Shown: positions 4,236 through 64,000 of the stretch, piece after piece
How positions within the stretch are numbered: the first letter of the stretch is position 1
Layout: each line of letters starts with the position of its first letter
NCBI GenBank assembly: GCA_945883905.1
Contig: CAMCYL010000002.1
Location: 7,464 to 71,463, forward strand
Origin: Akkermansia muciniphila
Lineage (GTDB): Bacteria; Verrucomicrobiota; Verrucomicrobiia; Methylacidiphilales; CAMAQI01
Reading direction: 5' to 3'
Length of the DNA: 64,000 nucleotides
The notes under the pieces: model-generated
Told to the model about the DNA's origin: nothing
Seen by the model: the letters and a program-made list of their open reading frames with translations, nothing else
Databases searched by the model: none
Translations under genes and position numbers: made by a program

Positions 4236-4279
4236 AGCGATACCTCGTTTTGTGATATTTCTTTTCGTTGACGACTGAA

Positions 4280-45656: not shown

Positions 45657-45664
45657 AGATCTCC

Positions 45665-47430: not shown

Positions 47431-47433
47431 AAT

Positions 47434-47889: not shown

Positions 47890-47919
47890 AAATAATCTCA
47901 GTCTCTCTCTTAAACTCGA

Positions 47920-48720
47920 TTAAGCTTGTTGCTCTTCCGTGAAAACCTCAGAGCCGTATTCGCCAATACGAATACCAGAAAGTTGTTCGTAGGGAATATC
48001 CTCTAACAAACGATAGACCAAAGCATCCGCTCTTAAACTAGCGGTCTGCGCTTTTCCTTTTAAGATGTAAAAGAAAATAAAGGCCGGAATCGCCACAACG
48101 AGCCCTGCCGCTGTCGCCACTAAAACCTCACCAATATTCCCCGCAAGCTTAGAGGGATCACTAATTCCCGATTGGCCTAAGGTCGCAAAGGCTTTAATCA
48201 TACCGAGCACGGTTCCGGTTAAACCGACCATCGGCGAGATAACTCCAATAACAGAAAGATAGGTCGTATTTGTTTTTAAAATCGAAGACTCCACGACCGA
48301 ATTTTCCTGAATCGCAAAATCGACCGCATCTTTACTTCTTCCAATCCGCTCAAGACCGGCCGCAAGTAATGTCGAAAGATAACAAGGAGAAGACTGACAC
48401 AATTGCCATGCCTCTTGATAGTTCCCAGAATGAATCTGCTCCTTAAGCTGCGCAACCAATATCGGAGGGGCCAATTTCACTAAACGTAATTTTACAAATC
48501 CCTCCACCGTAAACGCCACAACGCACATCGACATAATCACACAAAAATACATGACACTTCCTCCCTCATGGAAGATATCTTTAACACTCTTTTCCCCCTT
48601 CTTTGTGTCCTCGCCAACAGGAACCTCTTGCGCCATTAAGACCGATGAAAAAAGAATGCATGCGAAGCTCATCGCCAGCACCCATTGACCAAGTTTAGAA
48701 GACACTATTTTGATATTCAT
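47920..48720 (-). CDS. exbB: MotA/TolQ/ExbB proton-channel protein
   Basis: Starting at ATG 48720 (MNIKIVSS...), 1 nt after the upstream stop, gives 266 aa. Has LSVIGVISPMVGLTGTVLGMIKAF and GNIGEVLVATAAGLVVAIPAFIFF signatures. Confidence 0.88.
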   Translation of the reverse strand: MNIKIVSSKLGQWVLAMSFACILFSSVLMAQEVPVGEDTKKGEKSVKDIFHEGGSVMYFCVIMSMCVVAFTVEGFVKLRLVKLAPPILVAQLKEQIHSGNYQEAWQLCQSSPCYLSTLLAAGLERIGRSKDAVDFAIQENSVVESSILKTNTTYLSVIGVISPMVGLTGTVLGMIKAFATLGQSGISDPSKLAGNIGEVLVATAAGLVVAIPAFIFFYILKGKAQTASLRADALVYRLLEDIPYEQLSGIRIGEYGSEVFTEEQQA

Positions 48721-48721
48721 T

Positions 48722-49462
48722 TTAACGCACCACGAGTTGAGGGTTTTGATTACGAAGCTTTTTAGCCTGCTCCTCGGCTTTACCGACGATGTCGACATTC
48801 TGATAAAAAGAGGTCACCGTTGTCAAATAACTTTCGAGTGCCCCCTCTAAATCCTTCTTTTTCTCCAAAATCATTCCTTTCACTAAAAAGGCCTCCCCAT
48901 AAAGCCGCCCCTCTTCAGCAGAGGGAGCTGCAGTCTTATTGGCAGACTCAATTAACGGTTCCAAAAGCTTGAGCGCTTCATCAAGATTATCGGAGGCCAA
49001 TGCCCCTTTAGCCTTACCCACATTCGCTTTAATAAGATACTTCGATCCCGGAAACAACTGCTCAATCTGAGCGTAAAGAGCCGTCGATTCTGCAATCTTT
49101 CCCGTTGCGGTATAGGCATCCGCTAACGTTCCCATCGCATCAATCACCCAATCGGCAGGAAGTCCTTTAAACTTTTTAACCAACGGCTCTAAAACGGTAA
49201 CAACGGAGGAAAAGTCAGATCGGTTCAAGGTCGATATCTCAGAAGGAACGGTCATCTCAATTTTTTGAATCGTTGAAATCGGTATTGGTACACGCCCCTT
49301 TCCAGATCCCACGACGATCTCCACAATCACATTGCTTCCATCTGCTCCAACAATCGTTCCGACTTGCTTTTTATCGGACTTTAAAAAAATCGTATCTTCC
49401 GCAAAAACCATTCCTAATGATAACGAAGCAATAATCCCTAAAATGAATTTTCTCAAATGCAT
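48722..49462 (-). CDS. Secreted TPR-like helical-repeat protein, first gene of the ExbBD operon
   Basis: 246 aa with signal peptide MHLRKFILGIIASLSLGMVFA. The C-terminal helical repeats (AESTALYAQIEQLFPGSKY..., GRLYGEAFLVKGMIL) resemble TPR/YbgF-type units. Confidence 0.5.
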   Translation of the reverse strand: MHLRKFILGIIASLSLGMVFAEDTIFLKSDKKQVGTIVGADGSNVIVEIVVGSGKGRVPIPISTIQKIEMTVPSEISTLNRSDFSSVVTVLEPLVKKFKGLPADWVIDAMGTLADAYTATGKIAESTALYAQIEQLFPGSKYLIKANVGKAKGALASDNLDEALKLLEPLIESANKTAAPSAEEGRLYGEAFLVKGMILEKKKDLEGALESYLTTVTSFYQNVDIVGKAEEQAKKLRNQNPQLVVR

Positions 49463-49649: not shown

Positions 49650-50060
49650 ATGACCTCAAATCCCTCCCTCAAAATGGGGTACACTCTCTTAGAGATCACG
49701 ATTGCTCTAGCCACCCTCGTGATCCTACTCACGGCCACCCTCACAACGATTGATTCTTTGAAAACTGAACGTGGCTTGGCGGTCGGAGCGGAACTCCGAA
49801 CACTTCATCTGGCTCAAAAACAGTACCTCATTCAGACCCTCGATCATCCAGGAACCATCGACCTGAGTGCTCTTTCTTTGAGTGAGCTTCAAAATGCAGG
49901 ACTCGTTCCAAAAAGGCTCCCTGGACTCGAAAAAGTGGGGATCTCTACACTTAAAATCAATGTCATCCCTCCTCTTTGTACCTTAGATGGAACTGAAAAA
50001 GATAAGATAAAAATTGATAAAAATTCCGGAGATCTTCTTTATGATATTGGTCCGGAATAA
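49650..50060 (+). CDS. Pilin/pseudopilin with class III signal peptide
   Basis: 136 aa. MTSNPSLKMG|YTLLEITIALATLVILL has Gly at -1, Glu at +5 and a hydrophobic helix. Confidence 0.75.
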   Translation: MTSNPSLKMGYTLLEITIALATLVILLTATLTTIDSLKTERGLAVGAELRTLHLAQKQYLIQTLDHPGTIDLSALSLSELQNAGLVPKRLPGLEKVGISTLKINVIPPLCTLDGTEKDKIKIDKNSGDLLYDIGPE

Positions 50061-50622
50061 AAACTCGCCCACCCTCAATTTTCTTTCACGCAGCTATTCT
50101 CTCATAGAATTAGCCGTTGCCATTGCACTTATCGGATTGCTCCTCCACTCCTCCATCACACTCACCTCATTTACCGGACTATTTTTCCGCCGAATGAAAA
50201 CCGCCTCTGATTACGAATACCAAGTGGCCCCCCTTGATCACCTCCAAAGAACTCAAGTTCGTCAGTGTCAATTTTCAGTTTATTCCGATCGAGCGACCGC
50301 ATTAACCAACCTTCCTCAGGATCGAACGCCAACAGGGACCGTTCTTCGATGCGATCGCTACGATGGCAACGGATGGTTCCTACTCGTTTGGGAGGAAAGC
50401 AAGAAAACCCTTTGGCTCGAGCCCGGAAACGATTCCTCGCTCAATGTGATTAACCACTCCTATCCCTTTGCGACGCTCCATTCGTTAGTCTTCGATGTCT
50501 CCCAAGGAGTTCTGCAAACCTACATTCAACTTCTCGTCGCAATGGATTACACGATGAAATCAAACAACGCCTCTCAACCTCATACAATCGATTATGTCCT
50601 TATCACTCAAAATTATTTCTAA
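50041..50622 (+). CDS. Pseudopilin-like protein with an atypical cleavage motif (Ser at -1)
   Basis: From the internal ATG the protein is 193 aa. MILVRNKNSPTLNFLSRS|YSLIELAVAIALIGLLL has Glu at +5 but Ser instead of Gly at -1. Confidence 0.5.
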   Translation: MILVRNKNSPTLNFLSRSYSLIELAVAIALIGLLLHSSITLTSFTGLFFRRMKTASDYEYQVAPLDHLQRTQVRQCQFSVYSDRATALTNLPQDRTPTGTVLRCDRYDGNGWFLLVWEESKKTLWLEPGNDSSLNVINHSYPFATLHSLVFDVSQGVLQTYIQLLVAMDYTMKSNNASQPHTIDYVLITQNYF

Positions 50623-52165
50623 AAAATCTTCAGCCCTCATGGCGACTTTGATGATCCTCCTTGGACTCTCTGCCTTAATCGGATTTTCATCGCAACAAGC
50701 CCTTTGCTTTTTAGAAAGTCAAAGAACGGGATCCATCGATACGACCCTCACGCAATTCGAAGAAAATCTAATTCAATCAATGCAAGCCTCTTACTACGAG
50801 GTCTATCGATCTGTCTCCTCTGATTCCTCCAAATCCAAAATAATGACAGAGACCGATCTCAAAGCCGTCGCTCAGGAGGGCTATGCTCGGTTGGGAATCA
50901 CAGGAGTTGTCGGAGAAAAAGTAATGATTCCACACTCCACAGGCAACTCGATCGAGGCTTTAATTCAGCTGAAATTTCCTCCTTCGATAACTCAAATCGA
51001 TACTCAAGCGACCACCCCTTATTCTCCAATTCAAGGCACTTACTCTTGGTTGGATGGAGTCTCTGCGATTCAAAAATCGATCGATCTAACCTTAACCCTT
51101 TCCGGAAAAAACGCTTACTCTGGAAAAGTAAGAGCCATCACTCACTCCTATCGACTTCAACTTTTAGAAATTCCCGTCGAAAATATTTCACTAAGTTCCC
51201 TCGGAAACATCACACTTCCGAACGTCTCGATTCAAGCTCGAAACGGTTATTTTGGTGGCTCCCTTCAAGGAGGAAATGGAATCCAATTCCAAAATCGACT
51301 GATTACCGGAAATCGTGAAGACAGCGGAGTCAACCCCCCCTCTGATGAAAAGAGCAATCGAGGAGAATGGAGTGAACGAGGATATTCGGAAATCGTGAGT
51401 ACAAATTCGATTCGAAACCTCTCCTCACAACGTTCCCCTGCACTAGGGACTGTACTCAAAGCGAGCTATCTTTTCCGAGAAGGTCTCGCCGCTGAATCGA
51501 GATTCAGCGATATTGAAAAATCACAGCTCAGAACATTCCAACCATACTACCGAGTGCCCGTCGCTCAACGAATTTATGGAATCCATAATCCCTCTGCAAC
51601 GAATGACGACGACGCCTTCCTCCTATCCTCTGGAGACGGAGAGGAAGAGAGTTGTACAACTCTCCCCTCATGGGCAACGGTACGTCTAAATACGAATTCA
51701 ACACCCAAAGTCCAGTTCCTCATCGACCTCTCTCTGATTTCTCCCGATGCAAATCAAGAGGTCAATCTCTTTATCGGAAGTCGAAACAGGGCGAGTACAG
51801 GACCCTTCTCTCAAGCGGAGATCATTATTATTCCTTGGGAAAACATCCCCTCGGATCGAAAAATCACTGTGATTTCCCCCAATTCGATCGTGATTTCCGG
51901 AGTTTTTAATCAGGGAACCCCTTCGGCTTCAGTCCATTTTTTTGCAAATCGAGTCTATTACGGAAGTAGTTCCACAAGTCAGGTCCATTTTGAGGGAACT
52001 TATTCAAATTACCAGCAACAGGAAACAGGAAGTTCATTGAACTTTCAGTCGAGTGATGGCGCTCTTCCTGAATCTTCAACTCTGCTCATGAACTCAAATG
52101 ATAGTAAAAACATTCATCGTAATCACCATTATTACTATTTAGTCTTAAAATCAAAAATACCTTAA
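50594..52165 (+). CDS. Large minor-pilin-like protein (GspK/PilX-like N-terminus)
   Basis: 523 aa. The N-terminus KKSSALMATLMILLGLSALIGF resembles the GspK-type anchor without Glu+5. The remainder is unrecognised and Ser/Asn/Gln-rich. Confidence 0.35.
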   Translation: MSLSLKIISKKSSALMATLMILLGLSALIGFSSQQALCFLESQRTGSIDTTLTQFEENLIQSMQASYYEVYRSVSSDSSKSKIMTETDLKAVAQEGYARLGITGVVGEKVMIPHSTGNSIEALIQLKFPPSITQIDTQATTPYSPIQGTYSWLDGVSAIQKSIDLTLTLSGKNAYSGKVRAITHSYRLQLLEIPVENISLSSLGNITLPNVSIQARNGYFGGSLQGGNGIQFQNRLITGNREDSGVNPPSDEKSNRGEWSERGYSEIVSTNSIRNLSSQRSPALGTVLKASYLFREGLAAESRFSDIEKSQLRTFQPYYRVPVAQRIYGIHNPSATNDDDAFLLSSGDGEEESCTTLPSWATVRLNTNSTPKVQFLIDLSLISPDANQEVNLFIGSRNRASTGPFSQAEIIIIPWENIPSDRKITVISPNSIVISGVFNQGTPSASVHFFANRVYYGSSSTSQVHFEGTYSNYQQQETGSSLNFQSSDGALPESSTLLMNSNDSKNIHRNHHYYYLVLKSKIP

Positions 52166-52250
52166 AATAAAATAAAAAATACTCTTGTCCTCTTTGAGTT
52201 CAACTACTATTTGAATAGAAATCGATACAATTAAAAAAACAAATCAACAA

Positions 52251-52667
52251 ATGGAGTCTATGAAAAATAATCAAAATAAAAAACGTGCATTCAGCTTAAT
52301 GGAACTCGCTGTTGGCATCGGGGTCGTCGGAATTCTCGCTGCCGTGGCAGCGATTCCTCTCACACGTTATATTGAAGATGGAAAAGGGAATGCCTGTACA
52401 CAACAACTCGCTGAAATCAATCGAGCCACGATCACTTACGTTTCGATCAATAATGTCTCTCAAGGAGATTATAGCTCTACGGTCACTGAAAATGCGATTT
52501 CGGTTTATCTAGGGGGAAAAATAGTCAATACCGATTTTAAATGCCCCATTGATGGAACCTATTCATTAGGAACTTGGGGAGCGGGCGATAGTGGACCTCA
52601 AGATCCGACTTGTAGCTGCAGTAAAAAAGAGATTACAGCTCGGCTTCACAGTCTTGGCAATAAATAG
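52251..52667 (+). CDS. Pilin-like protein, candidate major subunit (Ala at -1)
   Basis: 138 aa. MESMKNNQNKKRA|FSLMELAVGIGVVGILAAVA. C-terminal Cys residues (CPIDG...CSCS) could form pilin disulfides. Preceded by an AT-rich 85-bp gap. Confidence 0.65.
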   Translation: MESMKNNQNKKRAFSLMELAVGIGVVGILAAVAAIPLTRYIEDGKGNACTQQLAEINRATITYVSINNVSQGDYSSTVTENAISVYLGGKIVNTDFKCPIDGTYSLGTWGAGDSGPQDPTCSCSKKEITARLHSLGNK

Positions 52668-52722
52668 AGTCCCTTGCTCTTTTTAAAAATCTAAAACCCT
52701 CGTTTTTCAAAAAACAAGAGAT

Positions 52723-53877
52723 ATGAAAACGACCCCCGATGCTCAAGCAAAAGATCTACTCCATCTCATCTTAACAGCACTTGTCCAACAGGAGGGAAGT
52801 GATTTTCACCTCCGCACCTATCGTGTTCCATTTCTGCGAATTCACGGAGAACTTCAATCAAATCTCACGTCGAGTACGATCCCCACTGATGTACTAGAGT
52901 CGATACTCAAACTACTTCTGATGATGCGATCAGCCGCTTATATGGGGGATCCAGATCTCGCTTCATTTTATGAAGAGTTAAAAAGACAGGGGGCCGTCAA
53001 CTTCTCCTGCTCCTCTGAACTACTGGGAGAAGATTTCCCTAAAACTCGACTCCGAATCCACTCTTTTTTAGATTCGGAAGGGATCAGTATTGTCGGTCGT
53101 GTCTTAAGAAGTGAAATTCCTACTCTTGAAAAACTAGGTTTCGAGTCGAGTATTATTCAAAGAATTCAATCTCAAATACAAAAACCGACCGGTTTGATTC
53201 TCGTCACGGGTCCCACAGGCTCCGGAAAAACAACTACACTCGGGTCGATTATTCAATCGATCAATCTCAACACTTCCAATCATATTATCACCGTCGAAGA
53301 TCCCATTGAAATTCATTACCGCCATTATTCGCCTTTAATTGAAGGCTCAGAAATCTATCGATCTCTCATCACTCAACGGGAAGTTGGAGTGCATACCGAC
53401 TCATTCCGCAACGGCCTCCATGATGCGCTTCGAGAAGATCCGAATATGATTTTATTGGGAGAACTTCGCTCAATGGATACGATTGAAGCCGCCTTGAATG
53501 CCTCTGAAACGGGGCACTTAGTCTTCTCGACGCTCCACACCAATGGCGGCTATAAAACAATTAATCGAATTATCTCTGAATTTCCTGCCGATCGTCGCAA
53601 TTTTATCTGCAATCAACTCGCCTCTAATCTGAATTGCATCATTAGTCAAAGGCTCCTGCCCAGAATCGATCAACCAGGACGAATCCTCGCTTACGAATAT
53701 CTCGAGATCACAGGTCCTGTCAAAGCCGCGTTGATTGCGGGAGACCCCGATCGTATTCCCAACTGCATGGACTCTAAAAACTCCTTTAAATGGAATGATA
53801 ATCTCAAAGGACTTTATCAATCCCAAATCATATCCGAAGAGCTCTTTCAAATGAACCTCATGGAGGAACAAGGATAA
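52723..53877 (+). CDS. pilT: PilT/PilU-type type IV pilus retraction ATPase
   Basis: 384 aa with LVTGPTGSGKTTTL, ITVEDPIEI, ITQREVG, EDPNMILLGELRSMDTIEAALNASETGHLVFSTLHTN. No N-terminal GspE-N domain. Confidence 0.9.
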   Translation: MKTTPDAQAKDLLHLILTALVQQEGSDFHLRTYRVPFLRIHGELQSNLTSSTIPTDVLESILKLLLMMRSAAYMGDPDLASFYEELKRQGAVNFSCSSELLGEDFPKTRLRIHSFLDSEGISIVGRVLRSEIPTLEKLGFESSIIQRIQSQIQKPTGLILVTGPTGSGKTTTLGSIIQSINLNTSNHIITVEDPIEIHYRHYSPLIEGSEIYRSLITQREVGVHTDSFRNGLHDALREDPNMILLGELRSMDTIEAALNASETGHLVFSTLHTNGGYKTINRIISEFPADRRNFICNQLASNLNCIISQRLLPRIDQPGRILAYEYLEITGPVKAALIAGDPDRIPNCMDSKNSFKWNDNLKGLYQSQIISEELFQMNLMEEQG

Positions 53878-53924
53878 TTTTCAAGCCCTTGACGAGTTCA
53901 AACTCGTCGACCAAGGAAGAAGAG

Positions 53925-55472
53925 ATGAGCTCAAAAAAACTTTTTCAAACCTTAAATCAACAGTCCCTCTTAGAATCCCAATGCGGAATCTCCATCGGGA
54001 AAGCCCTCACTTTTGCTCGAGATCAGATTCGAGTCGAACTTCATTCTCAAGGATTTTCTTGGGGAAGGCTTTGCGGCACGCAATGGGAGTGGGGGAATTT
54101 TGAAATTGCGGATTCCTACGAGAACTCACTGAAACTTTTCCAACAAAAAATCGCTTCTCGCTCTCTGATTCGAAATGGACAGGTCTTAATCACAAACCTG
54201 TGGTCACCGAATTTTCAAATTCAACCGATTCATCAACAGTTATCTCAAAAATTTAACTCCCTTTCAGAATTAGATCTTACGGCTCAAGTGGCCCCTTCAC
54301 AACTCAATCTAACGCCAGGATTTATCTATCGAACAATTGAAAAAAAAGCCGATCGGAGCACAATCAAAAATGGGGACTTAATTGGAATTCCAATTATAGG
54401 AATCGAATCCACAGAATCCGCCCTCCCAAGAATCACAAAAGTCTCCCGCCATTGGGGCCCTCTATCTGTTTTACAAGTCATCGTGAATCGTTTTTCGATG
54501 GAACTCCCGGAATCTCTCCTTCTCGGAATTATCGATGCCCATCGTGTTTACTATATCAGCATTCGCAAACTTCAACTCAGTGGACTTCGAAGTTCAGTTC
54601 GATCGAGCCTCAGGGACACGGGCGATCTTCATTCAACGATTACGAGCTTAGGGAGAGAAACCTCCTGCATTCTTTTTGTAAACTTAACAAATAACAGTGA
54701 AGATCTCATTTCGATTGTTCAAGAACTCGAAAAGAATAAAAAATGGACAATCCGAACAATGGGAAGAGCTGAACTTTTACAAGCCTTTCCTGAGCTGCAA
54801 AACTTTTCTCTTGCACCGCTATTTCCTCTGTCTCTTCTCTTCGATCGATCTTTGAGAACCCCCACAGAGATTCCCTCCCCCTCATTTGTCACACCCCAAG
54901 AAGCCCTATCACCTCAAATCACTTCAATGCAAGGGGGATTACTTCGCAGCTTTCGATTATTTAGAATGGTTTTATTTCTATTTTCACTCTCGATCCTCTC
55001 TTGGGGAGGCTACAAAATATACGCACAACTCTCCTCCCCAGAATGGAATGTTTCAGGGGAGCTTGCGAGACAGACAAAAATTAAATATGAACAATTTATC
55101 CAAGACTCACAGGAGTATCAAAAAAAATATAAAACCTTAAAGTCATTCCCTCGTTTTGATTTGATCGCTCATCCTTTATTAGTACCCGGACCGCAAGGAG
55201 TCACGCTTGATGAAATTAAATTTATTTCAAAGTCAGCCCCTAAAAGCAAAAGCGATCGATCTTTTGAACTTTCAATCCAAGGGACAATGCTTAATGGCGA
55301 TCTCCTTAAACTCAGAGAATACGCGAATCATCTTGAGATTCAAATTCAAGAAAACCTTCCCGATTTTATCATTAAGGTGATTGATAGTGGACTCACCGAA
55401 AAAACAAATAGTTCAGGAGCGGCCTTCCGCCTGATCGTTAAAATAGAGTCAAAAAATCATGGATCCATTTAA
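53925..55472 (+). CDS. Bitopic assembly-platform candidate (GspL or PilM-PilN-fusion-like topology)
   Basis: 515 aa from the ATG at 53925 (the track uses a TTG at 53889). About 330 aa are cytoplasmic, followed by one TM (FRMVLFLFSLSILSWGGYKIY) and about 150 aa periplasmic. The call rests on position and topology only. Confidence 0.35.
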   Translation: MSSKKLFQTLNQQSLLESQCGISIGKALTFARDQIRVELHSQGFSWGRLCGTQWEWGNFEIADSYENSLKLFQQKIASRSLIRNGQVLITNLWSPNFQIQPIHQQLSQKFNSLSELDLTAQVAPSQLNLTPGFIYRTIEKKADRSTIKNGDLIGIPIIGIESTESALPRITKVSRHWGPLSVLQVIVNRFSMELPESLLLGIIDAHRVYYISIRKLQLSGLRSSVRSSLRDTGDLHSTITSLGRETSCILFVNLTNNSEDLISIVQELEKNKKWTIRTMGRAELLQAFPELQNFSLAPLFPLSLLFDRSLRTPTEIPSPSFVTPQEALSPQITSMQGGLLRSFRLFRMVLFLFSLSILSWGGYKIYAQLSSPEWNVSGELARQTKIKYEQFIQDSQEYQKKYKTLKSFPRFDLIAHPLLVPGPQGVTLDEIKFISKSAPKSKSDRSFELSIQGTMLNGDLLKLREYANHLEIQIQENLPDFIIKVIDSGLTEKTNSSGAAFRLIVKIESKNHGSI

Positions 55473-55971
55473 AAAATCACTCCTCATTTACGGACTCATG
55501 ATTCCTTTACTCATGACAACGATCATTTGTGTTGGAATGAATACCGTTCAAGGCGATATTCAACGGCAGTATTTACAAAAAAAAATCATTTTTGATGAAA
55601 TGATGAAACAAGAGGCGATCTTAAAAAAGACGACCCAACAACAACAAGTCATAAAACAAGAACTCCCCCTTATTCGCTCCTACTTCCTCCCCACTCATAT
55701 TACCCAAGCAACCGCAACGATTGCCTCACAATGTTCCGAAGAAAAAGGACTTAAACTCGGTGATCTCAAACAAATAGGGAGCAGCGACTCTACCAAATCA
55801 GCCTCTCATCAATTAAAACTTTTAGGTCGATCCGCCCCTCTTTTAGAGATTTTAGGAGAGGCTCAAGGAATTCATCCTGCCCTTCATTTTGATCAATGGT
55901 CGATCGGGCTGCAGATGGACCAAAAGGTGCTTCTTTTTCAGGGAACACTGCAACTTGTAAATATCCCATGA
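55459..55971 (+). CDS. Bitopic PilO/GspM-like candidate
   Basis: 170 aa with an N-terminal TM (LLIYGLMIPLLMTTIICVGM), then a coiled-coil-like segment. The call is based on position. Confidence 0.3.
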   Translation: MDPFKKSLLIYGLMIPLLMTTIICVGMNTVQGDIQRQYLQKKIIFDEMMKQEAILKKTTQQQQVIKQELPLIRSYFLPTHITQATATIASQCSEEKGLKLGDLKQIGSSDSTKSASHQLKLLGRSAPLLEILGEAQGIHPALHFDQWSIGLQMDQKVLLFQGTLQLVNIP

Positions 55972-56528
55972 ACAAAATTGCCGTATCCCTCCTCCTCATC
56001 TCAATCCTGATTCCCGCAGCTCCCTCTCAATCTTTGCCAGATCCGGATCTACTGAAAACCCTGAAGACCTTTGAAGTAATCCCCACTAAAACACTCTCCG
56101 ATCAAGTGAGCCATGACTCTTTTGGACTGATTCCCAGAGGAAGTTTTACTCTTAAAAAAGAAATAACGGCGAGCGAAAACATCAAGACCCTCGTAACCCT
56201 TTCTGATGTTACCTCCACTTTAAAACTTTACGGACTATTTCCCAATCAAGAGGCGATCATCAATTCGATCCTTTGGAAAATAAACAGTCGACTCACTGTT
56301 CGCTATAAAAAACAGGATTACGTACTCCTCTTAAAAGAGATCACTGAAAACTCAATTAAAATTGGATGGCTCGAAAACGATTCTCAACTTCAAATTACGC
56401 TTTCAACTCCCTCCTCTGAAGTACTCGTGGAACAACCCGAACAAATAGAACCTGAGTCCTCGGAAACATTACTGGTGATTGAAACCTCTGAAAGTCAAAT
56501 CCCCTTAAAATTAAACCAAAGAAAATAA
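55968..56528 (+). CDS. Periplasmic PilP/GspC-like candidate
   Basis: 186 aa from an ATG that overlaps the upstream stop (ATGA). Signal peptide MNKIAVSLLLISILIPAAPSQ. Immediately precedes the secretin gene. Confidence 0.3.
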   Translation: MNKIAVSLLLISILIPAAPSQSLPDPDLLKTLKTFEVIPTKTLSDQVSHDSFGLIPRGSFTLKKEITASENIKTLVTLSDVTSTLKLYGLFPNQEAIINSILWKINSRLTVRYKKQDYVLLLKEITENSIKIGWLENDSQLQITLSTPSSEVLVEQPEQIEPESSETLLVIETSESQIPLKLNQRK

Positions 56529-58027
56529 TGAAAACAATAATCCTCTTTGCATTGCTCTCACTTCTCCTCGCAACAGGCCTGACTTGGAGTGAAGTTAAAA
56601 CGTCATCAGACGAAATTAATATTATATTTGATGAAATCCCGGAAAAAACTCCAACGATCGATCTCATATCGAAAGTCCCAGATCATCAAAGCGCCTACCG
56701 AATTCAAAATATGCCGTTAAATGATTTCGTCCTAGCCATGGCACAAAAAGGATCTCTTTCTTATGTGGCTAATCCGAAAGTCACAGGGACGGTCAGCGGT
56801 CGTTTTACTCAAAGCTCCGCTCTCGAAATGATTAAAGTGGCCGCCCGAGCAAACGGCTATGCCGTTCAGGAAAATGGATCAAACATTGAGCTTTATAACG
56901 CTGATACCTTAGCCGCGCTTCCTCAACAGGTTTACACCCGACAACTCAAATACCTTCGTGTCCCAGGAAAGCCCGAGGATCAACAAAAAAAAATGCAGGA
57001 ACTATTTAAGGGATTTCTCTCCTCCGATCGCTCTCAAATTCAATTTGATTCCAAAACCAACACTCTTGTCGTGAGAGATGTCGACTCCAATATTAGTCTC
57101 CTCGACTCGATGATCAACAAACTGGATGTCGATCGACCCAATGTTCTCGTCCGAGTAACGGCGGTCGAGGTTGATGCGAATCCTCGACGAATGTATGGAA
57201 TCGATTGGCAAAATACCTTTGGAGAGGCAGGACTTGATCTTTCCGCAACGACGGTCAATTCACTAGCCTCTCTGCTCACCACTCAATTTGTAGCAACAAC
57301 CGCAACCTCTGCATTACCCACGCATCCAGACTACGCTCTGGTTTTACAACCGGGACAAGTCAAAGGTGTTCTCAGAGCTCTGGAAAAAAAGGGGCTCGCA
57401 GAAATTCGTGCTCAATTTTTTGTTTCAACCGAGGATAATGAACTAGGAATGACGACCGTGGCTCGGCAAGAGCCCATTCCAACCTTTAGTGCCAATCAGC
57501 AAACGGGCGGATTCGATATTACCGGATTTCAATACAAACCCATCGGTGCAACCCTTCAAGTCACGCCTCAATTACTTCCCGATAACATTGTTCGACTCGC
57601 CATTAAACCCTCTTTAAGTTCCTCCAATCAGACGAGAACCTTCACCTCAAATAATGGAGGATTTAGTGCCTCTGTTCCGATCATTGAAGAGAGATCGACG
57701 GAGGTCACGGTACGGGTTCCGATCAATAAATCTCTTCTTCTGGGAGGACTTCAACAACTCTTCGGAACGGATCAATCAAATAAAGTTCCTCTCCTTGGAG
57801 ATATCCCTCTCCTCAAGTTCTTTTTTTCAAGTCGAGATTACGAAAAAAGAACCCGCAACCTCATTCTCGTTGTCGAACCAGGAACACTCGATCCTCAAAA
57901 TCCTGAAAATCTTCAGGAGGAAATTAATAAAATCAAAGATCAAATGAAATTTCACCCCAAAGACTTTAATAAGCCGATCTCGGATCTATCCGCTAAAGCC
58001 TCCGACTTCAGCCCATTCGCTCAATAA
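56528..58027 (+). CDS. Secretin (GspD/PilQ family), short form
   Basis: 499 aa with a signal peptide and an N0-like domain (MPLNDFVLAMAQKGSLSYVANPKVTGTVS). The secretin C-terminus is ERSTEVTVRVPINKSLLLGGL...NKVPLLGDIPLLKFFFSS...NLILVVEP. Confidence 0.88.
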   Translation: MKTIILFALLSLLLATGLTWSEVKTSSDEINIIFDEIPEKTPTIDLISKVPDHQSAYRIQNMPLNDFVLAMAQKGSLSYVANPKVTGTVSGRFTQSSALEMIKVAARANGYAVQENGSNIELYNADTLAALPQQVYTRQLKYLRVPGKPEDQQKKMQELFKGFLSSDRSQIQFDSKTNTLVVRDVDSNISLLDSMINKLDVDRPNVLVRVTAVEVDANPRRMYGIDWQNTFGEAGLDLSATTVNSLASLLTTQFVATTATSALPTHPDYALVLQPGQVKGVLRALEKKGLAEIRAQFFVSTEDNELGMTTVARQEPIPTFSANQQTGGFDITGFQYKPIGATLQVTPQLLPDNIVRLAIKPSLSSSNQTRTFTSNNGGFSASVPIIEERSTEVTVRVPINKSLLLGGLQQLFGTDQSNKVPLLGDIPLLKFFFSSRDYEKRTRNLILVVEPGTLDPQNPENLQEEINKIKDQMKFHPKDFNKPISDLSAKASDFSPFAQ

Positions 58028-58031
58028 TTTT

Positions 58032-58937
58032 ATGATCCATACGCTTCTCAAACGAAAGCAATCTCTCAAACCAGCTGAAAACCCTCCTAAACGAGAGTTC
58101 TCTTTGGGATTTTCGACGAATCAATCGATGGATTCTACTCTTGAAAAAATAATAGAGGATATCACTCAAACCTCGATCCCGCAGAAAGAAACAATCCCTG
58201 TAATCCTCGATCCTCACTCAATCCCGAATGATCGTGGATTTAACTCTCCTCCAATAACTCTCCCCGCCTCAATTTTTACAAAAAAAACGATTTCAAAAAA
58301 TAAAACAATTCGCGGACTGAATAATCCTTTAAAAGTTCCCAGTAATCATCAAAAACTAAACTCTTTTTCGCCCGTCATCCTTAAAAGTAGCGCCTCAAAT
58401 GCCACACAAAAAAATGAAACACAGCTCGCACCTCCTTCTGAGCAATCCCCAATTCCCTCCTTTCGACTTCCCTTAAGTCAATCCAACTCAATAATTCAAA
58501 CCACCCGGATTTCGATTGCCAAAGAACTCCTTAAATCGGCGGCCTCTTGTCAAATGATCTCCATTCAAGAAGCCCATTCCATGGGAAGTAAAATGACCCT
58601 TTCCGCCCAGGGATTAATGCTTCCACTCCTCGCTGAACTCCTTCATCGCAATCCAGAATCAGTTCAAAAAAATCTACTGTTAAAAATTAATAAACCGGTA
58701 GTTCCGATTGATTTCTTTGCCTCACTCATCGGCAATCAAACGGTCCAAAAATTTCATACTCTTTTAATCCCATATAAAATAATTCCCCTTTTTCATCAAG
58801 GAAACTCTCTGACCATTCTTGCGGAACATCCCTTGCTCCTTACTCTTGCGGAAACCATTTTAAAAGAAAATCACTCTCCCGTCGCCTGGATTCATTTTAT
58901 TCCCGCATCGCTGATCGATCTGGAGTCTTTCTCATGA
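58032..58937 (+). CDS. Standalone protein with a C-terminal GspE-N (T2SSE_N / MshEN)-like domain
   Basis: 301 aa. The C-terminal about 140 aa (IAKELLKSAASCQMISIQEAH...KPVVPIDFF...LIPYKIIPLFHQGNSLTILAEHPLLLTLAETI) follow the T2SSE_N pattern. No ATPase motifs. ATGA overlap with the following ATPase gene. Confidence 0.4.
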   Translation: MIHTLLKRKQSLKPAENPPKREFSLGFSTNQSMDSTLEKIIEDITQTSIPQKETIPVILDPHSIPNDRGFNSPPITLPASIFTKKTISKNKTIRGLNNPLKVPSNHQKLNSFSPVILKSSASNATQKNETQLAPPSEQSPIPSFRLPLSQSNSIIQTTRISIAKELLKSAASCQMISIQEAHSMGSKMTLSAQGLMLPLLAELLHRNPESVQKNLLLKINKPVVPIDFFASLIGNQTVQKFHTLLIPYKIIPLFHQGNSLTILAEHPLLLTLAETILKENHSPVAWIHFIPASLIDLESFS

Positions 58938-60610
58938 GTTATGCCGATACAATTCCAGTCATCCTCCGAGAACCGCTCACGGAAATGATCGCCACGGCTC
59001 TTGATAAAAACCCCACTGAAGTCGATCGAAACTTCGATCATCAACGCGAGGAAGATCTCTTAGGTGCCGTTGCACACCACCTTGAAGCTCCCTACTTAGA
59101 TCTTCAAACCTCGATGGTTGATTCAGAACTCTATAAAAAATTTAACCCCGGAGATCTTCATCACCACCGTTTTCTCCCTTTATTCCAACAGGGAAAAACC
59201 CTCTGGTGTGCCTCCCCCAATCCATGGCTCATTCAGATTAAAGATAATATTCAAAATACCCTTCAATCTCCAGAGCTCCACGTCGCCTACTTCACCGTCT
59301 CTGATAACGATCTCAGCGCTTGGATGAGACAGCAAGGACTAAACGGACAGGGCTACGCCAAAACGGCGGAAACCTTACAAGTCGCTCAAGAAAGTGCCGA
59401 TCAAAGTATCTCCCTCTCTCCAGAGACAAAACATGTTTGGGGCGTCATTTCTCAAATCTTTATCGACTGTATTAATAAAAATGCGACCGAACTCCATTTT
59501 GAGCCGGAAGGGGAACGCCTCCGCGTACGAGCAGAAATCAATGGAACCCTCCAAGACTTGGACTCCCTCCCCACAACACTCTCTGGAACCATTGATCACA
59601 TCCTTTACTCGAAAACAAAAACCATGAAAGGAGATCGATGGAGATTTCCTCAAAGCGGGAGCTTTACTTTTCCTTATCAGAATCGACAAATCAATGTCCG
59701 AATTCAAACAGTCGGACGAGATATCGGGATGATTACACAATTAGTCCACACAACCGTTCGATTTCAAGATTCACAACGAAACAAACAAATCTCCCTGGAG
59801 TCACTCCCTTTTGAATCTCAAATTCAACAGCTTATTAAAAATTCCGTTCAAGAACCTGGCTCACTCTCTATTATTGCCGGTCCCACTGGAAGCGGTAAAA
59901 CGACCACTCTGGGAGCGATTCTAAAATTTTTGGCAACAGATGAAAGAATGATTTATGCCGTTGAAGATCCAGTCGAGAATATCTATCCTGGAGTCATTCA
60001 TGTTCTTGCGGATCGTGACTCGGGTATCACTTTTGGATCAATCCTAAAAGCGCTTCTCCGAAAAAAACCGCATGTGATTATGGTTGGAGAGATGCGAGAG
60101 CGAGAAACAGGCGAGGTAGTGATTGAAGGAGCCCTCACCGGACACATCATGTTAACAACCGTTCACTGTGATTTTGCCTGCGAAATCCCTGAACGACTCA
60201 CTTATTTAGGGATTCAGCCTTTTCAAATCGCAAGTAAACTGAAGCTTTGTTCCTCACAACGACTCGTGAAAGAGCTCTGTCCCCACTGTTTAAGCGAGAT
60301 CGAGCTCACTCCTGAATTACAAATTATTAACCGCTACCCTCTGGCCTGGATCGGAAAAAAGATGAAGTTTCATCATCCTTTAGGATGCTCCCGTTGTAAC
60401 CGTGGTTATATGGCTCGAAGACCCATTATTGAAGTGATGCCCACTGATACAAAACTCATTGATCTCATCTATTCGGGAGCGCGTCCTCATGAACTACAAC
60501 GTTATGCCGTTGAAAACCTAAAGATGAAAACCCTGAAACAATCCGCATTCGAATTAATTGAAAAAGGGATAACAGACTACAACGGTGTCAAATCTGGCAT
60601 CTCCCTCTAA
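58934..60610 (+). CDS. GspE/PilB-type type IV filament assembly ATPase
   Basis: 558 aa with its own N-terminal T2SSE_N-like region (FLPLFQQGKTLWCASPNPW). Has Walker A GPTGSGKTTTL, VEDPVE, Walker B VIMVGEMRE and His box GHIMLTTVH. A tetracysteine motif CPHC...CSRC is present. Confidence 0.92.
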   Translation: MSYADTIPVILREPLTEMIATALDKNPTEVDRNFDHQREEDLLGAVAHHLEAPYLDLQTSMVDSELYKKFNPGDLHHHRFLPLFQQGKTLWCASPNPWLIQIKDNIQNTLQSPELHVAYFTVSDNDLSAWMRQQGLNGQGYAKTAETLQVAQESADQSISLSPETKHVWGVISQIFIDCINKNATELHFEPEGERLRVRAEINGTLQDLDSLPTTLSGTIDHILYSKTKTMKGDRWRFPQSGSFTFPYQNRQINVRIQTVGRDIGMITQLVHTTVRFQDSQRNKQISLESLPFESQIQQLIKNSVQEPGSLSIIAGPTGSGKTTTLGAILKFLATDERMIYAVEDPVENIYPGVIHVLADRDSGITFGSILKALLRKKPHVIMVGEMRERETGEVVIEGALTGHIMLTTVHCDFACEIPERLTYLGIQPFQIASKLKLCSSQRLVKELCPHCLSEIELTPELQIINRYPLAWIGKKMKFHHPLGCSRCNRGYMARRPIIEVMPTDTKLIDLIYSGARPHELQRYAVENLKMKTLKQSAFELIEKGITDYNGVKSGISL

Positions 60611-60619
60611 AAGACTTTT

Positions 60620-61825
60620 ATGCCTCTCTATCAAATTATCGGTCTCAACTCAAATGGAGAGAAAGTAGTGACACAATGGAGTGCAAGTCACGAGTCAGAC
60701 TTAAAAGGAATCGCCAATGGTCATAAAATTACACTTCTTCACTCCCAATTAATGAATTCTCAACAACTGTTAAGTTCTCCTAAAAATCAAAAACTAAAGT
60801 CCACACAAGTCGCCGTTTTTTGCGAAAGACTTGCTCCATTACTCGAAATGCGGGTTCCACTCAGCCAAGCCCTTACTTTTTTATATGAAAAATCTCCAGA
60901 TCCTATGATCCGAAGTGTGACTCAAACCCTAAAACTCTCCTTAGAGGAGATGCCCTTTCCGCAAGCCATCGAATCCTGTGGTAAATTTCCCCCGCTTGTT
61001 TCAGGATCGATCAAGGCAGGAAATGATTCCGCACTCCTTCCAGAGGTTTTAAATATTTTAGCCCGCTTCTATCGGGCTCAGGTGACGATGGTCGCCTCTA
61101 TTCGGAATGCGCTTGTTCAACCCTCTTTTGCATTAGTCATTGTCCTTGGCTATCTCCTTTTTTCTTTACTATTTACCGTCCCTAATCTCGCTAAAATGAT
61201 GACGAGTATGAACGCCAAACCTGGGGGCTTCATGGGATTACAAATTTGGATATCAGAAATTCTACGAGATTTTTGGCCGATGACCCTTTTCCTTTCTCTT
61301 TCACTGATGATGATCGTTTTTACCGAGAACTCCGTTCGACGAAAAATCTGGGAAGAGGCCATTCAACGAATCGGATTTTTAAGAGAAGTATTTTGGGGAA
61401 TGCGTCAAACCTCACTCCTCTATGCCATGGCCATTCTCTTTAAAGCCAATGTTCCTCACTCACAAGTTCTTCATTATCTCATTGATGTTGCAAAAGGAAC
61501 TCCGCTTGAAACTCAACTTAAGAAGGCAGAGGATCACTTTCAAAAAGAAGCAAAACTCACCCACGCACTCGAACTCCATGTCGATCTCGATCCTGATATT
61601 CTCTTTGCACTTAAAGCAGGCCACGAATCCTCTCAGCTCCCGGAACAAACGGAAAAAATTGCGAAGCTCTATGAAAAACAGGTCCTTCTTGCCTCCGAAT
61701 CGATCGCTCATAAAATCACCCCCATCATCATTATTCTCACGGCGGTTCTCGCGATCGGTTCTTACCTAATGACCTTTGGAGCGACCATGTCCGTCACTAT
61801 GAAACTCATGCGAGGAGGGATGTAA
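60620..61825 (+). CDS. GspF/PilC-type inner-membrane platform protein
   Basis: 401 aa with two repeated cytoplasmic domains and 3 TM segments. Follows the assembly ATPase. LSQALTFL... and LLYAMAILFKANVPHSQVLHYL are GspF-like. Confidence 0.85.
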   Translation: MPLYQIIGLNSNGEKVVTQWSASHESDLKGIANGHKITLLHSQLMNSQQLLSSPKNQKLKSTQVAVFCERLAPLLEMRVPLSQALTFLYEKSPDPMIRSVTQTLKLSLEEMPFPQAIESCGKFPPLVSGSIKAGNDSALLPEVLNILARFYRAQVTMVASIRNALVQPSFALVIVLGYLLFSLLFTVPNLAKMMTSMNAKPGGFMGLQIWISEILRDFWPMTLFLSLSLMMIVFTENSVRRKIWEEAIQRIGFLREVFWGMRQTSLLYAMAILFKANVPHSQVLHYLIDVAKGTPLETQLKKAEDHFQKEAKLTHALELHVDLDPDILFALKAGHESSQLPEQTEKIAKLYEKQVLLASESIAHKITPIIIILTAVLAIGSYLMTFGATMSVTMKLMRGGM

Positions 61826-61829
61826 TCTT

Positions 61830-62360
61830 ATGGTTTTACGCCTCTTAAAAAATAAAAAATACCGACTGAGAAACGATTCCCCGCCCACCTCTCCTCTCAA
61901 GGTCACTAGAATCAAGGGATTATCTCTTGTCGAAACCGTGGTCGCAATGGTCGTCATGACTCTCGTTGCAGGAGCAATCACGCAAACCATGATTTCGATC
62001 GAAAAAACTCAATTTCTTGCCGATCGTCGATCCGCCTTGATTACCGAATCGGCACGTCAATCAGAGATCCTTCGTGGAATCCCCCTCTCACGTCTCTTGA
62101 CGGAGCTCCCGAACCCCGGACTAAAAACCAAACGCTTATCCGATACCGATGGAAAATTAACTGGAATCATCCTCAATGATTCCGAAAGAGCCTCCGTCTG
62201 GTGGACTCGCACGGAGAGTCTACTTCCAATCTCAGGAGAGAAAATCCAAACTGTCCAAGTCGATCTCTATTACACCCTCTGGGGGGATCAAGTAAAAATG
62301 GGGGTAACCAATCAAGTCATTCGTCTCATGGAACGAGAAACTCGCCTCACGGCAGAGTAG
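61830..62360 (+). CDS. Pseudopilin with a long leader (Gly at -1)
   Basis: 176 aa. ...KVTRIKG|LSLVETVVAMVVMTLVAGAI has Glu at +5. The leader is about 30 aa if the first ATG is used. Confidence 0.65.
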   Translation: MVLRLLKNKKYRLRNDSPPTSPLKVTRIKGLSLVETVVAMVVMTLVAGAITQTMISIEKTQFLADRRSALITESARQSEILRGIPLSRLLTELPNPGLKTKRLSDTDGKLTGIILNDSERASVWWTRTESLLPISGEKIQTVQVDLYYTLWGDQVKMGVTNQVIRLMERETRLTAE

Positions 62361-62470: not shown

Positions 62471-64000
62471 ATGATTCATTCCTTTTCCCAAAAAAGTCTA
62501 CGAACGAAGTTAAATTTTATTTTTGGGATTTTGGTCGGAGTTTCGCTTTTAAGCGGGATATTCAGCTACCAAATCACCGTAAATCTCGAGGAGAGCATTA
62601 AGAGTTTAATTAATGTTCATATGAGCGCCTCGGAAAAGGTTCTTCAATCCGATATGGCTCACGATCAATTAAGAGCCATTGCTTTTCGGGCAATCATCGG
62701 AGCACAAACAGGAAACAAGCATGAGATCGATGCCGCAAAAGCTGAATTCATCGAAGCAAAAGCGGCCTTTGAAAAGGGAGTCAGCACAATTAAAGACCTT
62801 CCCGTTTCAGATTCCATCCATCAAGATATTAAAGAGGTTGAACCACGACTTAAAAGTTACATTCAATCGATCGATTCCCTCATCGATATGAGTGAAAAAG
62901 GGGATAAATCCAAAGCAATCGATTCGCTTCCCACATTCGGAACTCTCTTTGAGGAACTTGCTGAAAAAATGGCCAAGCTTGAGGATCATATTTTTACAGA
63001 GGCTCAAAAAACAAGTGACGAAAGTAGCAATCAAGTAATCCTCTCTAAAACAATCACTGGAGGCTCCATCTTCATATTGATCACGATTGGTATTGCCTCG
63101 ATTCTCTTTACTCAAAAATCGATCATTCAATCCCTTGAAAACTGCATTCGTTCGATCGATAGCGTCACCCAAAATGTCTCGACGGCCTCTACGCAAATCG
63201 AATCCGCAAGTAAACACCTTGCCTCAGGTGCCTCAGAGCAATCTGCGGGACTCGAAGAGACCAGTGCAAGTATGGAAGAGATCTCCAGCATGATTCAACA
63301 AAACGTGAATAATGCAAATAACTCTAAAAAAATTTCAATTAACGCCAAAGAATCCTCCGAAAAAGGGATTTCTTATATGAGCGAAATGAATAGTACGATC
63401 AACGGAATTAGAACCTCTGCCACCGAAATGAAGGAGGCTGTCTCGAGCATGCAGAGTGCAGAAAACCAAATCGCCAAAATCGTTAAAGATATCGATGAAA
63501 TCGCCTTTCAAACCAACATCCTCGCCTTAAATGCCGCAGTCGAAGCCGCGCGTGCTGGAGAGGCTGGAGCCGGTTTTGCAGTGGTTGCTGATGAGGTCAG
63601 AAATCTTGCCCAACGAAGCGCCCAAGCAGCACGAGAAACTGCTTTAAAGATTGAGGAATCGATTAAGATTAGTCATCGCAGCGTGATCGCTTCTGAGAAA
63701 GTGAATCAAAGCCTGACTCTCCTTGATCAAACCTCACTTCGAGTTGAATCCGGGTTCCAAGAAATTCTCAGTCAAACTCGTAACGTCAGTGAAGTCGTTA
63801 TTCAAATTTCTCAAGCCACTCAAGAGCAATCGATTGGAGTTCAAGAAACAAAGAAATCTCTCAATCAAATCGATCAAGTTACACAGTCAAATGCCGCTCA
63901 AGCGGAGGAGACCTCGCAGGCGGCACAAAGCCTTATCGAACAGGTCCATGGACTCCACGAGGCCTTAAATCTCTTAAAAAATCTCGTTGAGGGAAGATCA
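62471..64000 (+). CDS. Methyl-accepting chemotaxis protein (3' end beyond the window)
   Basis: Open frame from ATG 62471 to the window edge (510 codons, no stop), so it is absent from the ORF track. Translation runs [29 protein letters not shown], then a periplasmic 4-helix-like region, then TM2. The signalling domain reads [42 protein letters not shown]. Confidence 0.88.

Follow-up and report, generated by a model that had tools for sequence, protein, structure and literature searches.

The stretch of DNA analysed here, 64,000 nucleotides (nt) of contig CAMCYL010000002.1 (the window), carries at positions 49650-62360 of its + strand a cluster of 13 type IV filament genes, and the question raised by this locus is which machine they encode: a type II secretion system (T2SS), a type IVa pilus (T4aP), or some mixture of both. 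The cluster is probably a single operon for a complete, retractile T4aP-like pilus from an uncultured bacterium in a small, fast-evolving and isolated lineage of Verrucomicrobiota; the best explanation is a known machine in a very divergent variant, and not a hybrid of secretion system and pilus. Three features point to a retractile T4aP-like pilus: the conservation of pilT in the operon, the gene order M-N-O-P-secretin, and a likeness of the candidate major pilin to GspG that is confined to the N-terminal helix.

Protein families were assigned by scans with the hidden Markov models of Pfam and NCBIfam, with scores in bits compared with the curated cut-offs. Profiles were compared with each other by means of hhalign, and structures were predicted with AlphaFold2 and compared with the Protein Data Bank (PDB) by means of Foldseek. 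Loci of relatives are designated by L-numbers (L003, L005, L006, L007, L085, L086, L088, L092, and L097). A first inspection of the sequence (the earlier note) had listed 13 filament genes on the same strand and a prepilin peptidase gene 9 kb away on the other strand. All 13 open reading frames (ORFs) were confirmed at unchanged coordinates, tightly packed with intergenic gaps of -76 to +85 nt, and the peptidase was recognised by two Pfam families. Lengths are given in amino acids (aa), together with the alternative start codons:

49650-50060, + strand: minor pilin, 136 aa, signal KMG↓YTLLE
50041-50622, + strand: minor pilin, 193 aa from ATG 50041 (202 aa from TTG 50014), signal SRS↓YSLIE
50594-52165, + strand: large pilin-like protein, 523 aa, hydrophobic N-terminal helix KKSS↓ALMATLMILL, no Glu5
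52251-52667, + strand: candidate major pilin, 138 aa, signal KRA↓FSLME, four Cys
52723-53877, + strand: PilT/PilU-family ATPase, 384 aa, TIGR01420 and T2SSE
53925-55472, + strand: PilM-PilN fusion protein by predicted structure, 515 aa from ATG 53925, the start used by public assemblies (527 aa from TTG 53889)
55459-55971, + strand: PilO-position bitopic protein, 170 aa, by position and N-terminal transmembrane segment
55968-56528, + strand: PilP-position periplasmic protein, by position, 186 aa from ATG 55968, which forms an ATGA overlap with the upstream stop (210 aa from 55896)
56528-58027, + strand: secretin, 499 aa, Pfam Secretin and Secretin_N
58032-58937, + strand: protein X, MshEN/GspE-N-like by hhalign, 301 aa
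58934-60610, + strand: PilB/GspE-type extension ATPase, 558 aa, T2SSE, MshEN, CxxC...CxxC
60620-61825, + strand: PilC/GspF-type platform protein, 401 aa, Pfam T2SSF
61830-62360, + strand: minor pilin, 176 aa, signal IKG↓LSLVE
39854-40690, - strand: prepilin peptidase (PilD/GspO type), 278 aa, A24_N_bact (98 bits) and Peptidase_A24 (69 bits)

The unlinked peptidase is likely the processing enzyme for the five prepilins. A scan for promoters and terminators gave nothing exceeding shuffled expectation.

The 384-aa ATPase, which had already been taken for a PilT-type protein, matched TIGR01420 with 281 bits (E 1.5e-83; slightly below the cut-off of 319) as well as T2SSE, and its best solved relatives were the PilT proteins of Thermus (198 bits), Geobacter (187 bits), and Aquifex (177 bits), with PilU at 147 bits. 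Its gene occupies the same place of the operon in L005, L086, L088, L085, L007, and L097, and in all relatives with a contig covering the position, down to an ATPase identity of 39%, it is flanked by the genes for the major pilin and M. A PilT/PilU-family gene, the retraction ATPase expected of a T4aP, is therefore present in the operon, and its conservation strengthens the view of the earlier note that such an ATPase argues for a dynamic pilus, in which retraction would be its task.

Relatives of the extension ATPase were few. Identities of 79-100% were found on eight contigs of metagenomes or metagenome-assembled genomes (MAGs), and of 41-46% in a few others, after which the values dropped abruptly to about 30%. 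Three of 185,579 species, each represented by one genome, carry a relative above 40% identity (the MAG 'Methylacidiphilum sp. Phi' of the series LH-02apr19, 91%; a Verrucomicrobiota MAG, 84%; and a Verrucomicrobiia MAG, 41%), and two further relatives with 38-39% identity occur in metagenome contigs. Of the relatives that bear a label, the closest is a freshwater MAG assigned to Methylacidiphilum. A tblastn search of the ATPase against plasmids gave 26-33% identity in the 40 records listed, too low for nearest-neighbour labelling.

The order common to these loci is (minor pilins)-major pilin-pilT-M-N-O-P-secretin-X-pilB-pilC-(ABC-type ATPase in some)-pilin. As the comparison of synteny proposed in the earlier note revealed, the order of the 13 genes recurs in relatives, and it is thus not a chance arrangement; even in L097 (39% ATPase identity, 57% GC) the genes around pilT are arranged alike, no gene for the major pilin being identified there. 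The ATPase cores were placed in a neighbour-joining tree (200 bootstraps) that included two GspE references; the ATPase clade was monophyletic in 200/200 bootstraps. Neither the two GspE references nor P0060, the only ATPase that a source calls MshE, grouped with or near it.

Some relatives show additional genes at these loci. An ABC_tran ATPase gene, absent from the window, follows pilC inside the operon in L003 (7611-8291), L085 (10716-11486), and L086 (9078-9632), and in the Verrucomicrobiia relative L007 the gene for the major pilin is closely preceded by one for a response-regulator receiver (2618-3049).

Homologs of the 515-aa protein encoded after pilT amounted to 4 in 5.8 billion clustered proteins and 23 in 1.84 billion representatives, and a third search returned the same 4 proteins again. 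Among the 26 members of this M/N family, no PilM, PilN or GspL family was matched at E<=1, and no Pfam match was common to more than two members. The absence of an evident PilM sequence, remarked upon in the earlier note, thus extends to the whole family, whereas a PilM-type actin-like fold is predicted for the protein. The AlphaFold2 model from the 26-sequence alignment reached a predicted local distance difference test score (pLDDT) of 88.6 and a predicted template modelling score (pTM) of 0.71, superseding a model from 4 close homologs only (pLDDT 44), which had given marginal Foldseek matches, with Amuc_1100 among the weak fold matches to the PilN-type domain. In the later model an actin-like domain (about 30-306), predicted to be cytoplasmic, is followed by a linker with SPSFVTPQEAL, by a helix (334-369) holding the membrane-spanning stretch, and by a C-terminal domain, predicted to be periplasmic, of alpha-beta-beta-alpha-beta-beta topology, which is the fold of the periplasmic domains of PilN, PilO, GspL, and GspM. 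The matches obtained with Foldseek against the PDB were the following, TM being the template modelling score relative to the target:

BT_3980 (actin-like fold): E 5e-9, TM(target) 0.63
Thermus PilM in the PilM-PilN complex (2ych_A): E 4e-8, TM(target) 0.53
Pseudomonas aeruginosa PilM (5eou is listed among the PilM/FtsA matches): E about 1e-7
FtsA: E about 1e-7 (range of the PilM/FtsA matches, 4e-8 to 1e-6)
Myxococcus xanthus PilM (3jc8_Ma): E 3e-7
Cytoplasmic domain of the T2SS protein PulL: E 2e-5

The PilM matches therefore outranked the cytoplasmic domain of PulL. The 23 representatives fell into three groups, namely fused proteins of 499-526 aa, M-like proteins of 281-322 aa covering residues 30-306 of the query, and N-like proteins of 185-199 aa covering residues 318-493. 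Separate M-like proteins stop just past a conserved (F/L)P(L/I)(A/S)LLxGG, and separate N-like proteins start with MxxFNVxF(H/Y)TRxEA, a peptide that aligns with the SPSFVTPQEAL linker of the window protein; this indicated a clean end-to-end fusion. Judged by the predicted fold, the window protein is a lineage-specific PilM+PilN fusion, and the model together with the conserved peptide suggests that the PilM-type domain would bind the PilN-type N-terminal peptide. The fusion is not GspL itself, because relatives carry split genes: its GspL-like topology arose by a recent fusion in the lineage, as a parallel of GspL and not an inheritance from it.

A distant M-like member was also seen in L092 (10001-13790, GCA_049324635.1), in an operon M(310)-N(192)-169-179-188-151-81 aa that has no adjoining secretin or ATPase, so that the M/N family is used in dispersed layouts too.

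The two genes that follow the fusion gene are conserved in all relatives. The 170-aa protein has a transmembrane-like segment at residues 6-28; in the 186-aa protein the N-terminal segment is hydrophobic, with no lipobox Cys, and no PDZ or other Pfam domain was found. By hhalign, the 170-aa protein resembled the N-like domain weakly (E 0.008, 115 columns) and matched none of HofO, HofN and GspM, and the 186-aa protein presented no significant match to HofP or GspC. From position, topology and size, we infer that they are the PilO and PilP of this machine. The earlier placement of three proteins in the PilMN, PilO and PilP positions now has a predicted fold behind it for PilM-PilN, the other two being putatively placed by position and topology. 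Iterative searches with HofM, HofO, HofP, GspL, GspM, and GspC of Escherichia coli against the ORFs of about 90 loci yielded nothing, and the same search with HofN yielded 4 ORFs, none of them in the clade. The M, N, O, and P families gave no significant hhalign match to the Hof and Gsp proteins of E. coli and Comamonas, a null result that is uninformative, since even the structurally PilM-like domain gives nothing. In L085 (4286-5344) the PilO- and PilP-position proteins are fused into one of 352 aa, which is the second alignment-complex fusion in the clade.

The 499-aa outer-membrane secretin (Pfam Secretin, 107 bits; Secretin_N, 31 bits) aligned over residues 58-451 with positions 7-424 of the 428 of TIGR02515, the model of the PilQ core (117 bits, below the cut-off), and end to end with the HofQ models (67 bits vs. 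cut-offs of 554-598). The GspD model scored higher (157 bits, cut-off 351) and covered the C-terminal half only, with residues 145-452 aligned to positions 277-588 of 600, and the MshL model gave 91 bits (cut-off 250). Among PDB sequences, GspD chains scored 69-78 bits and M. xanthus PilQ 64.5 bits. No tetratricopeptide repeat (TPR) or other extra N-terminal domain was detected with Pfam, and a metagenome scan with the secretin alignment returned no confirmed match. By these alignments, the architecture is that of a PilQ core or of HofQ.

The 558-aa ATPase matched T2SSE (249 bits) and MshEN (33 bits) in Pfam, and it scored higher with the PilB model (285 bits) than with the GspE models (240-254 bits), the cut-offs being 617-676 (676 for PilB and 630 for GspE); ordinary PilB and GspE homologs from many phyla reach 530-800 bits with the same NCBIfam models. 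Its best solved relatives were PilB/PilF proteins of Geobacter, Myxococcus, and Thermus (180-193 bits), ahead of EpsE (162-165 bits). The four cysteines of the CxxC...CxxC motif (C449, C452, C485, and C488) are invariant across the clade. The 401-aa protein, previously proposed as the GspF/PilC platform, was confirmed as such by two stretches of Pfam T2SSF (99 bits) and has transmembrane-like segments; it scored 107 bits with GspF (cut-off 424) and 88 bits with PilC, both far below the cut-offs.

Between the secretin gene and pilB, every relative carries a homolog of protein X, which comprises a variable, Pro/Ser/Thr-rich N-terminal region of low complexity and a conserved C-terminal domain of about 140 aa, with no transmembrane segment. 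Neither Pfam and NCBIfam nor the sequences of the PDB gave a match, and its profile had no relevant match among PDB sequences. By hhalign, the C-terminal domain resembled the MshEN domains of 22 diverse PilB-type ATPases (probability 78%, E 1.7e-5, 114 columns), and matches to PilB of the same cluster were weak. The description of this protein as a standalone GspE-N-like one is thus supported at moderate strength. Protein X is probably an adaptor or regulator of the extension ATPase that tethers or regulates PilB, and an MshEN-like protein conserved beside pilB is a candidate for a new accessory factor.

A candidate major pilin and further pilin-like genes had been put forward in the earlier note, in agreement with the four ORFs in which a motif scan found the class III signal (G/A/S ↓ F/Y/L-S/T-L-x-E) and with the Glu5-less helix of the 523-aa protein. 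N_methyl motifs of Pfam or NCBIfam were detected in three pilins. Best conserved is the 138-aa pilin (93% identity to L005), which matched Pfam N_methyl (21.6 bits, cut-off 21.2) and TIGR02532 and no GspG equivalog of NCBIfam; its hhalign match to GspG was limited to the first 54 residues, that is, to the N-terminal helix. The gene for the major pilin lies directly upstream of pilT in L005, L088, L085, and L007. The 176-aa pilin (N_methyl, 19 bits) likewise resembled GspI and GspG in the N-terminal helix only and is conserved 3' of pilC in L005, L006, L086, and L088. Of the two small pilins encoded first, that of 193 aa (N_methyl, 17 bits, below the cut-off) has an ortholog 84% identical in L005 and is also found in L097, and that of 136 aa, kept in L005 (79% identity) and L097, resembles Gsp pseudopilins by hhalign in its N-terminal transmembrane-like helix and nowhere else; its size and place in the operon make it possibly a member of the GspI/PilV class. 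The 523-aa protein (71% identity to the L005 ortholog) had no match in Pfam or NCBIfam; its hhalign comparison with GspK was not significant (E 0.086) and revealed no likeness to the globular domain of the latter. The position, size, missing Glu5 and gene order of the 523-aa protein suggest a tip or capping pilin in the GspK/PilX position, and it is possibly an adhesin. The parts expected of a T4aP at these places, a platform with two T2SSF stretches, pilins with four canonical signals plus a Glu5-less one, and an A24 peptidase, were thus all found.

Taken as a pilus, the machine would work as follows. The five prepilins would be cleaved by the unlinked PilD-type peptidase, and three or four minor pilins, including the Glu5-less one of 523 aa, would prime and cap the fibre. 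The 138-aa pilin would be polymerised by the Zn-motif PilB-type ATPase on the PilC-type platform, with the stand-alone cytoplasmic MshEN-like protein probably tethering or regulating PilB. The fibre would leave through the short PilQ-core/HofQ-like secretin, linked to the inner membrane by the PilM-PilN fusion and the PilO- and PilP-position proteins, and the PilT-family ATPase encoded in the operon would depolymerise the fibre and so retract it. The pilus would serve in adhesion or twitching, or else in DNA uptake.

The same genes could be read as a T2SS, in which a non-retractile periplasmic pseudopilus pushes folded exoproteins through the secretin and the 527-aa form of the fused protein acts as GspL, and this is very unlikely. 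GspD and GspF are the top NCBIfam matches of secretin and platform, and GspD chains the top PDB sequence matches of the secretin, but all equivalog scores lie below the cut-offs (GspD 157/351, GspE 240/630, and GspF 107/424 bits). The earlier note had considered the short secretin T2SS-like; T2SS secretins are longer, not shorter, and this one can be matched from end to end to PilQ-core and HofQ models, but only to positions 277-588 of the 600 of GspD. The fused bitopic M+N protein has the topology of GspL, and the PulL cytoplasmic domain is among its Foldseek matches, but PilM ranks before PulL and relatives split the gene into M (about 300 aa) and N (about 190 aa), so its reading as an L-like, T2SS-type protein was given up. 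A large Glu5-less pilin following two small ones recalls gspI-J-K, but Glu5-less tip pilins exist in T4aP too (PilX), and the 'GspK-like' label that had counted for a T2SS is drawn from the missing Glu5, the size and the gene order, since hhalign (E 0.09) showed no likeness to the globular part of GspK. The CxxC...CxxC motif, also adduced as T2SS-like, is real and invariant, but the alignments with solved PilB/PilF proteins reach the C-terminus of the ATPase and cover the region of the motif, and the tetracysteine Zn motif also occurs in T4aP extension ATPases. The single locus would suit a T2SS; a T2SS has no dedicated retraction ATPase, and here one of the PilT family is integral to the operon and conserved in it. 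No GspC or PDZ protein was found in the cluster with Pfam, NCBIfam or hhalign, and no GspG-type major pseudopilin either, no model matching and hhalign aligning 54 residues only. The order M-N-O-P-secretin is no gsp order (clusters of E. coli and Comamonas were compared), and the GspE references stand apart from the ATPase clade in the tree.

A pilus of the mannose-sensitive haemagglutinin (MSH) type, a single-locus relative of T4aP with an order like mshI-J-K-L ... mshE-G-pilins, is likewise very unlikely. The resemblance to the msh order (alignment proteins, secretin, ATPase, platform, pilins) speaks for it, as do the MshEN-type domains of the ATPase and protein X and the match of the MshL model to the secretin, although the latter, at 91 bits, is far below the 250-bit cut-off. 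A pilT gene, which is in the operon here, is not known from msh loci, and the sole source-named MshE, P0060, is not near the clade. MSH systems almost always occupy one locus and can contain PilMNOP homologs (PMC6668835), but MshM, mandatory in the TXSScan model of MSH (PMC6668835), is not in the cluster, where Pfam detected no AAA/ExeA-type protein. A machine of the same class could instead be dedicated to DNA uptake, as a competence pilus like Hof/Ppd or ComE/PilQ, an option that we regard as rather unlikely. Over its entire length the short secretin can be aligned with models of the DNA-uptake porin HofQ, albeit with very low scores (67 bits vs. 554-598); DNA-uptake T4aP use a retraction ATPase, and the major pilin is small. 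No ComEA, ComEC or DprA appeared among the family-scanned ORFs of the window, a scan that was not exhaustive, and the 523-aa tip pilin suggests adhesion.

Several observations weigh against the retractile T4aP-like pilus that we prefer. In the 384-aa ATPase, the position of the AIRNLIRE motif reads PVKAALIA in a comparison by eye with P. aeruginosa PilT, in which the motif is needed for retraction; the fibre and its retraction are predicted from the genes. Tip pilin, PilO-position and PilP-position proteins are putative assignments, for which hhalign gave no significant match to Hof or Gsp counterparts. No component reached an NCBIfam equivalog or subfamily cut-off, and secretin and platform scored higher with Gsp than with Pil models. 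The ATPase phylogeny recommended in the earlier note settled the monophyly of the clade and left it on a long branch, with another long branch of the Planctomycetes-Verrucomicrobia-Chlamydiae (PVC) group as the best sister candidate (51/200), outside the sequences that score above the equivalog cut-off of PilB. Finally, a single operon holds every component but PilD, and T4aP genes usually occur in multiple loci (Denise 2019, PMC6668835). A clean placement of every component in one class with close characterised orthologs was accordingly not obtained. The earlier opinion that the class could not be decided is borne out insofar as the model hits are split and the cut-offs unmet, but the features then listed as T2SS-like are not diagnostic. 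With no cut-off reached and a single-locus layout, a TXSScan-type classifier would quite possibly call the system 'generic'. It is conceivable, though doubtful, that the clade is a separate, unclassified branch of type IV filaments largely confined to Verrucomicrobiota, which would be distinguished by its own M, N, O, and P families, a conserved MshEN-type partner of the ATPase, and pilT fixed in a single operon; if so, the preservation of PilM and PilN in both the fused and the separate state would amount to an independent and recent repetition of the fusion presumed to lie behind GspL of the T2SS.

The surroundings of the cluster were also surveyed. A gene for a methyl-accepting chemotaxis protein (MCP; 4HB_MCP_1 and MCPsignal), the chemoreceptor gene reported in the earlier note, lies at 62471-64000 (+); it starts 110 nt past the final pilin gene and is cut off by the end of the window. 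Its coupling to the pilus was considered and rejected: no MCP gene stands beside the cluster in L005 and L086, and the adjacency thus looks incidental. On the other side, an operon divergent from the cluster (46999-49462, -) encodes a secreted 246-aa TPR protein, followed by MotA/ExbB and two ExbD proteins, and beyond these genes (43929-46990) are two more, one for a protein of the DUF4159 family and one for a protein with FG-GAP repeats. The TPR gene adjoins the pilus cluster in L005 as well. A role of its product as pilotin was rejected, since it has no lipobox and no Tgl, PilW or PilF match and its gene heads the ExbB-ExbD operon of the opposite strand. Directly upstream of the peptidase gene are a bactofilin gene (41151-41504) and a gene for a small protein with an H-type lectin domain (40721-41047), both on the - strand, and a 531-aa TPR protein (41555-43150) presented weak Tgl and PilW matches (25-28 bits).

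Further away, an 860-aa ORF with no Pfam match (14043-16625, +) lies in a stretch with an AT skew of -0.20, strongly negative and the extreme of the window. A 651-aa protein (30603-32558, -) with the type IV secretion coupling protein domains TrwB_AAD_bind and TraG-D_C possibly belongs to a conjugative element or is what is left of one. On the - strand, a pair of ORFs (1392 and 1290 aa, 57-8152) is rpoC/rpoB-like in size and order, and this pair together with an ORF of EF-Tu size (11590-12774) suggests that the window is chromosomal core DNA.

The cluster adds a T4aP-like machine that is complete, compact and encoded in one operon, and it comes from a lineage that has been little studied. It illustrates how far the alignment complex can drift: a PilM fold is predicted, and 1.84 billion representative proteins gave no sequence signal of PilM. 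Such drift is one reason why classifiers of the TXSScan type file systems of this kind as 'generic'. Within one clade, PilM and PilN occur both fused and split, a natural pair for studying the mechanistic effect of a GspL-type fusion. Current understanding is not overturned, as type IV filament systems that cannot be classified are common; 884 systems fitting no specific model were termed 'generic' (Denise et al. 2019, PMC6668835).

Compared with known systems, the best studied verrucomicrobial case, the Amuc_1098-1102 cluster of Akkermansia muciniphila, is also a type IV pilus-like locus, and its accessory proteins are likewise hard to recognise by sequence. Its secretin Amuc_1098 has 907 residues with an N-terminal TPR/BAM-like domain (PMC4960237), whereas the secretin of the window has 499 aa and scored 59.5 bits with the Amuc_1098 family model (cut-off 750); the two clusters are not the same system. 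The MSH pilus has the single-locus layout, the MshEN-domain ATPase and a short secretin in common with the cluster, which differs in the absence of MshM and MshN, in the pilT of the operon, and in an MshL score far under the cut-off. The Hof/Ppd system of E. coli (hofMNOPQ and ppdD-hofB-hofC) is similar in the short secretin of about 400-500 aa, the M-N-O-P-Q order and the small pilin; in contrast, its genes are in separate loci with pilT (yggR) elsewhere, and hhalign detected no likeness of M, N, O, and P sequences to those of the cluster. With the T2SS (GspC-M; E. coli K-12 and Comamonas) the cluster shares the single locus, the GspL topology, the Zn-motif ATPase, a large Glu5-less minor pilin after two small ones, and GspD and GspF as best NCBIfam matches, and it departs from it in pilT, in the lack of GspC and of a GspG-type major pseudopilin, in gene order, and in a secretin that matches half of GspD.

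From the T4aP of M. xanthus, Thermus thermophilus, and P. aeruginosa, the cluster differs in an extension ATPase with about half the score of ordinary homologs and in having all its components below the curated cut-offs, in the fusion of PilM and PilN, and in O-position, P-position and tip-pilin proteins that are unrecognisable by sequence. It has no PilY1, no further N-terminal domain was detected in its secretin, an additional MshEN-like protein precedes pilB, and the AIRNLIRE motif of PilT, compared by eye, is apparently not conserved; one operon including pilT takes the place of several loci. In common with these pili it has both ATPases, the platform, the secretin, the prepilin peptidase, and a major pilin with four pilin-like proteins, all but that of 523 aa carrying class III signals. 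A predicted actin-like domain of PilM type is joined to a bitopic module of PilN type, the order M-N-O-P-secretin is that of pilMNOPQ, and the best solved relatives of its two ATPases are PilT and PilB/PilF.

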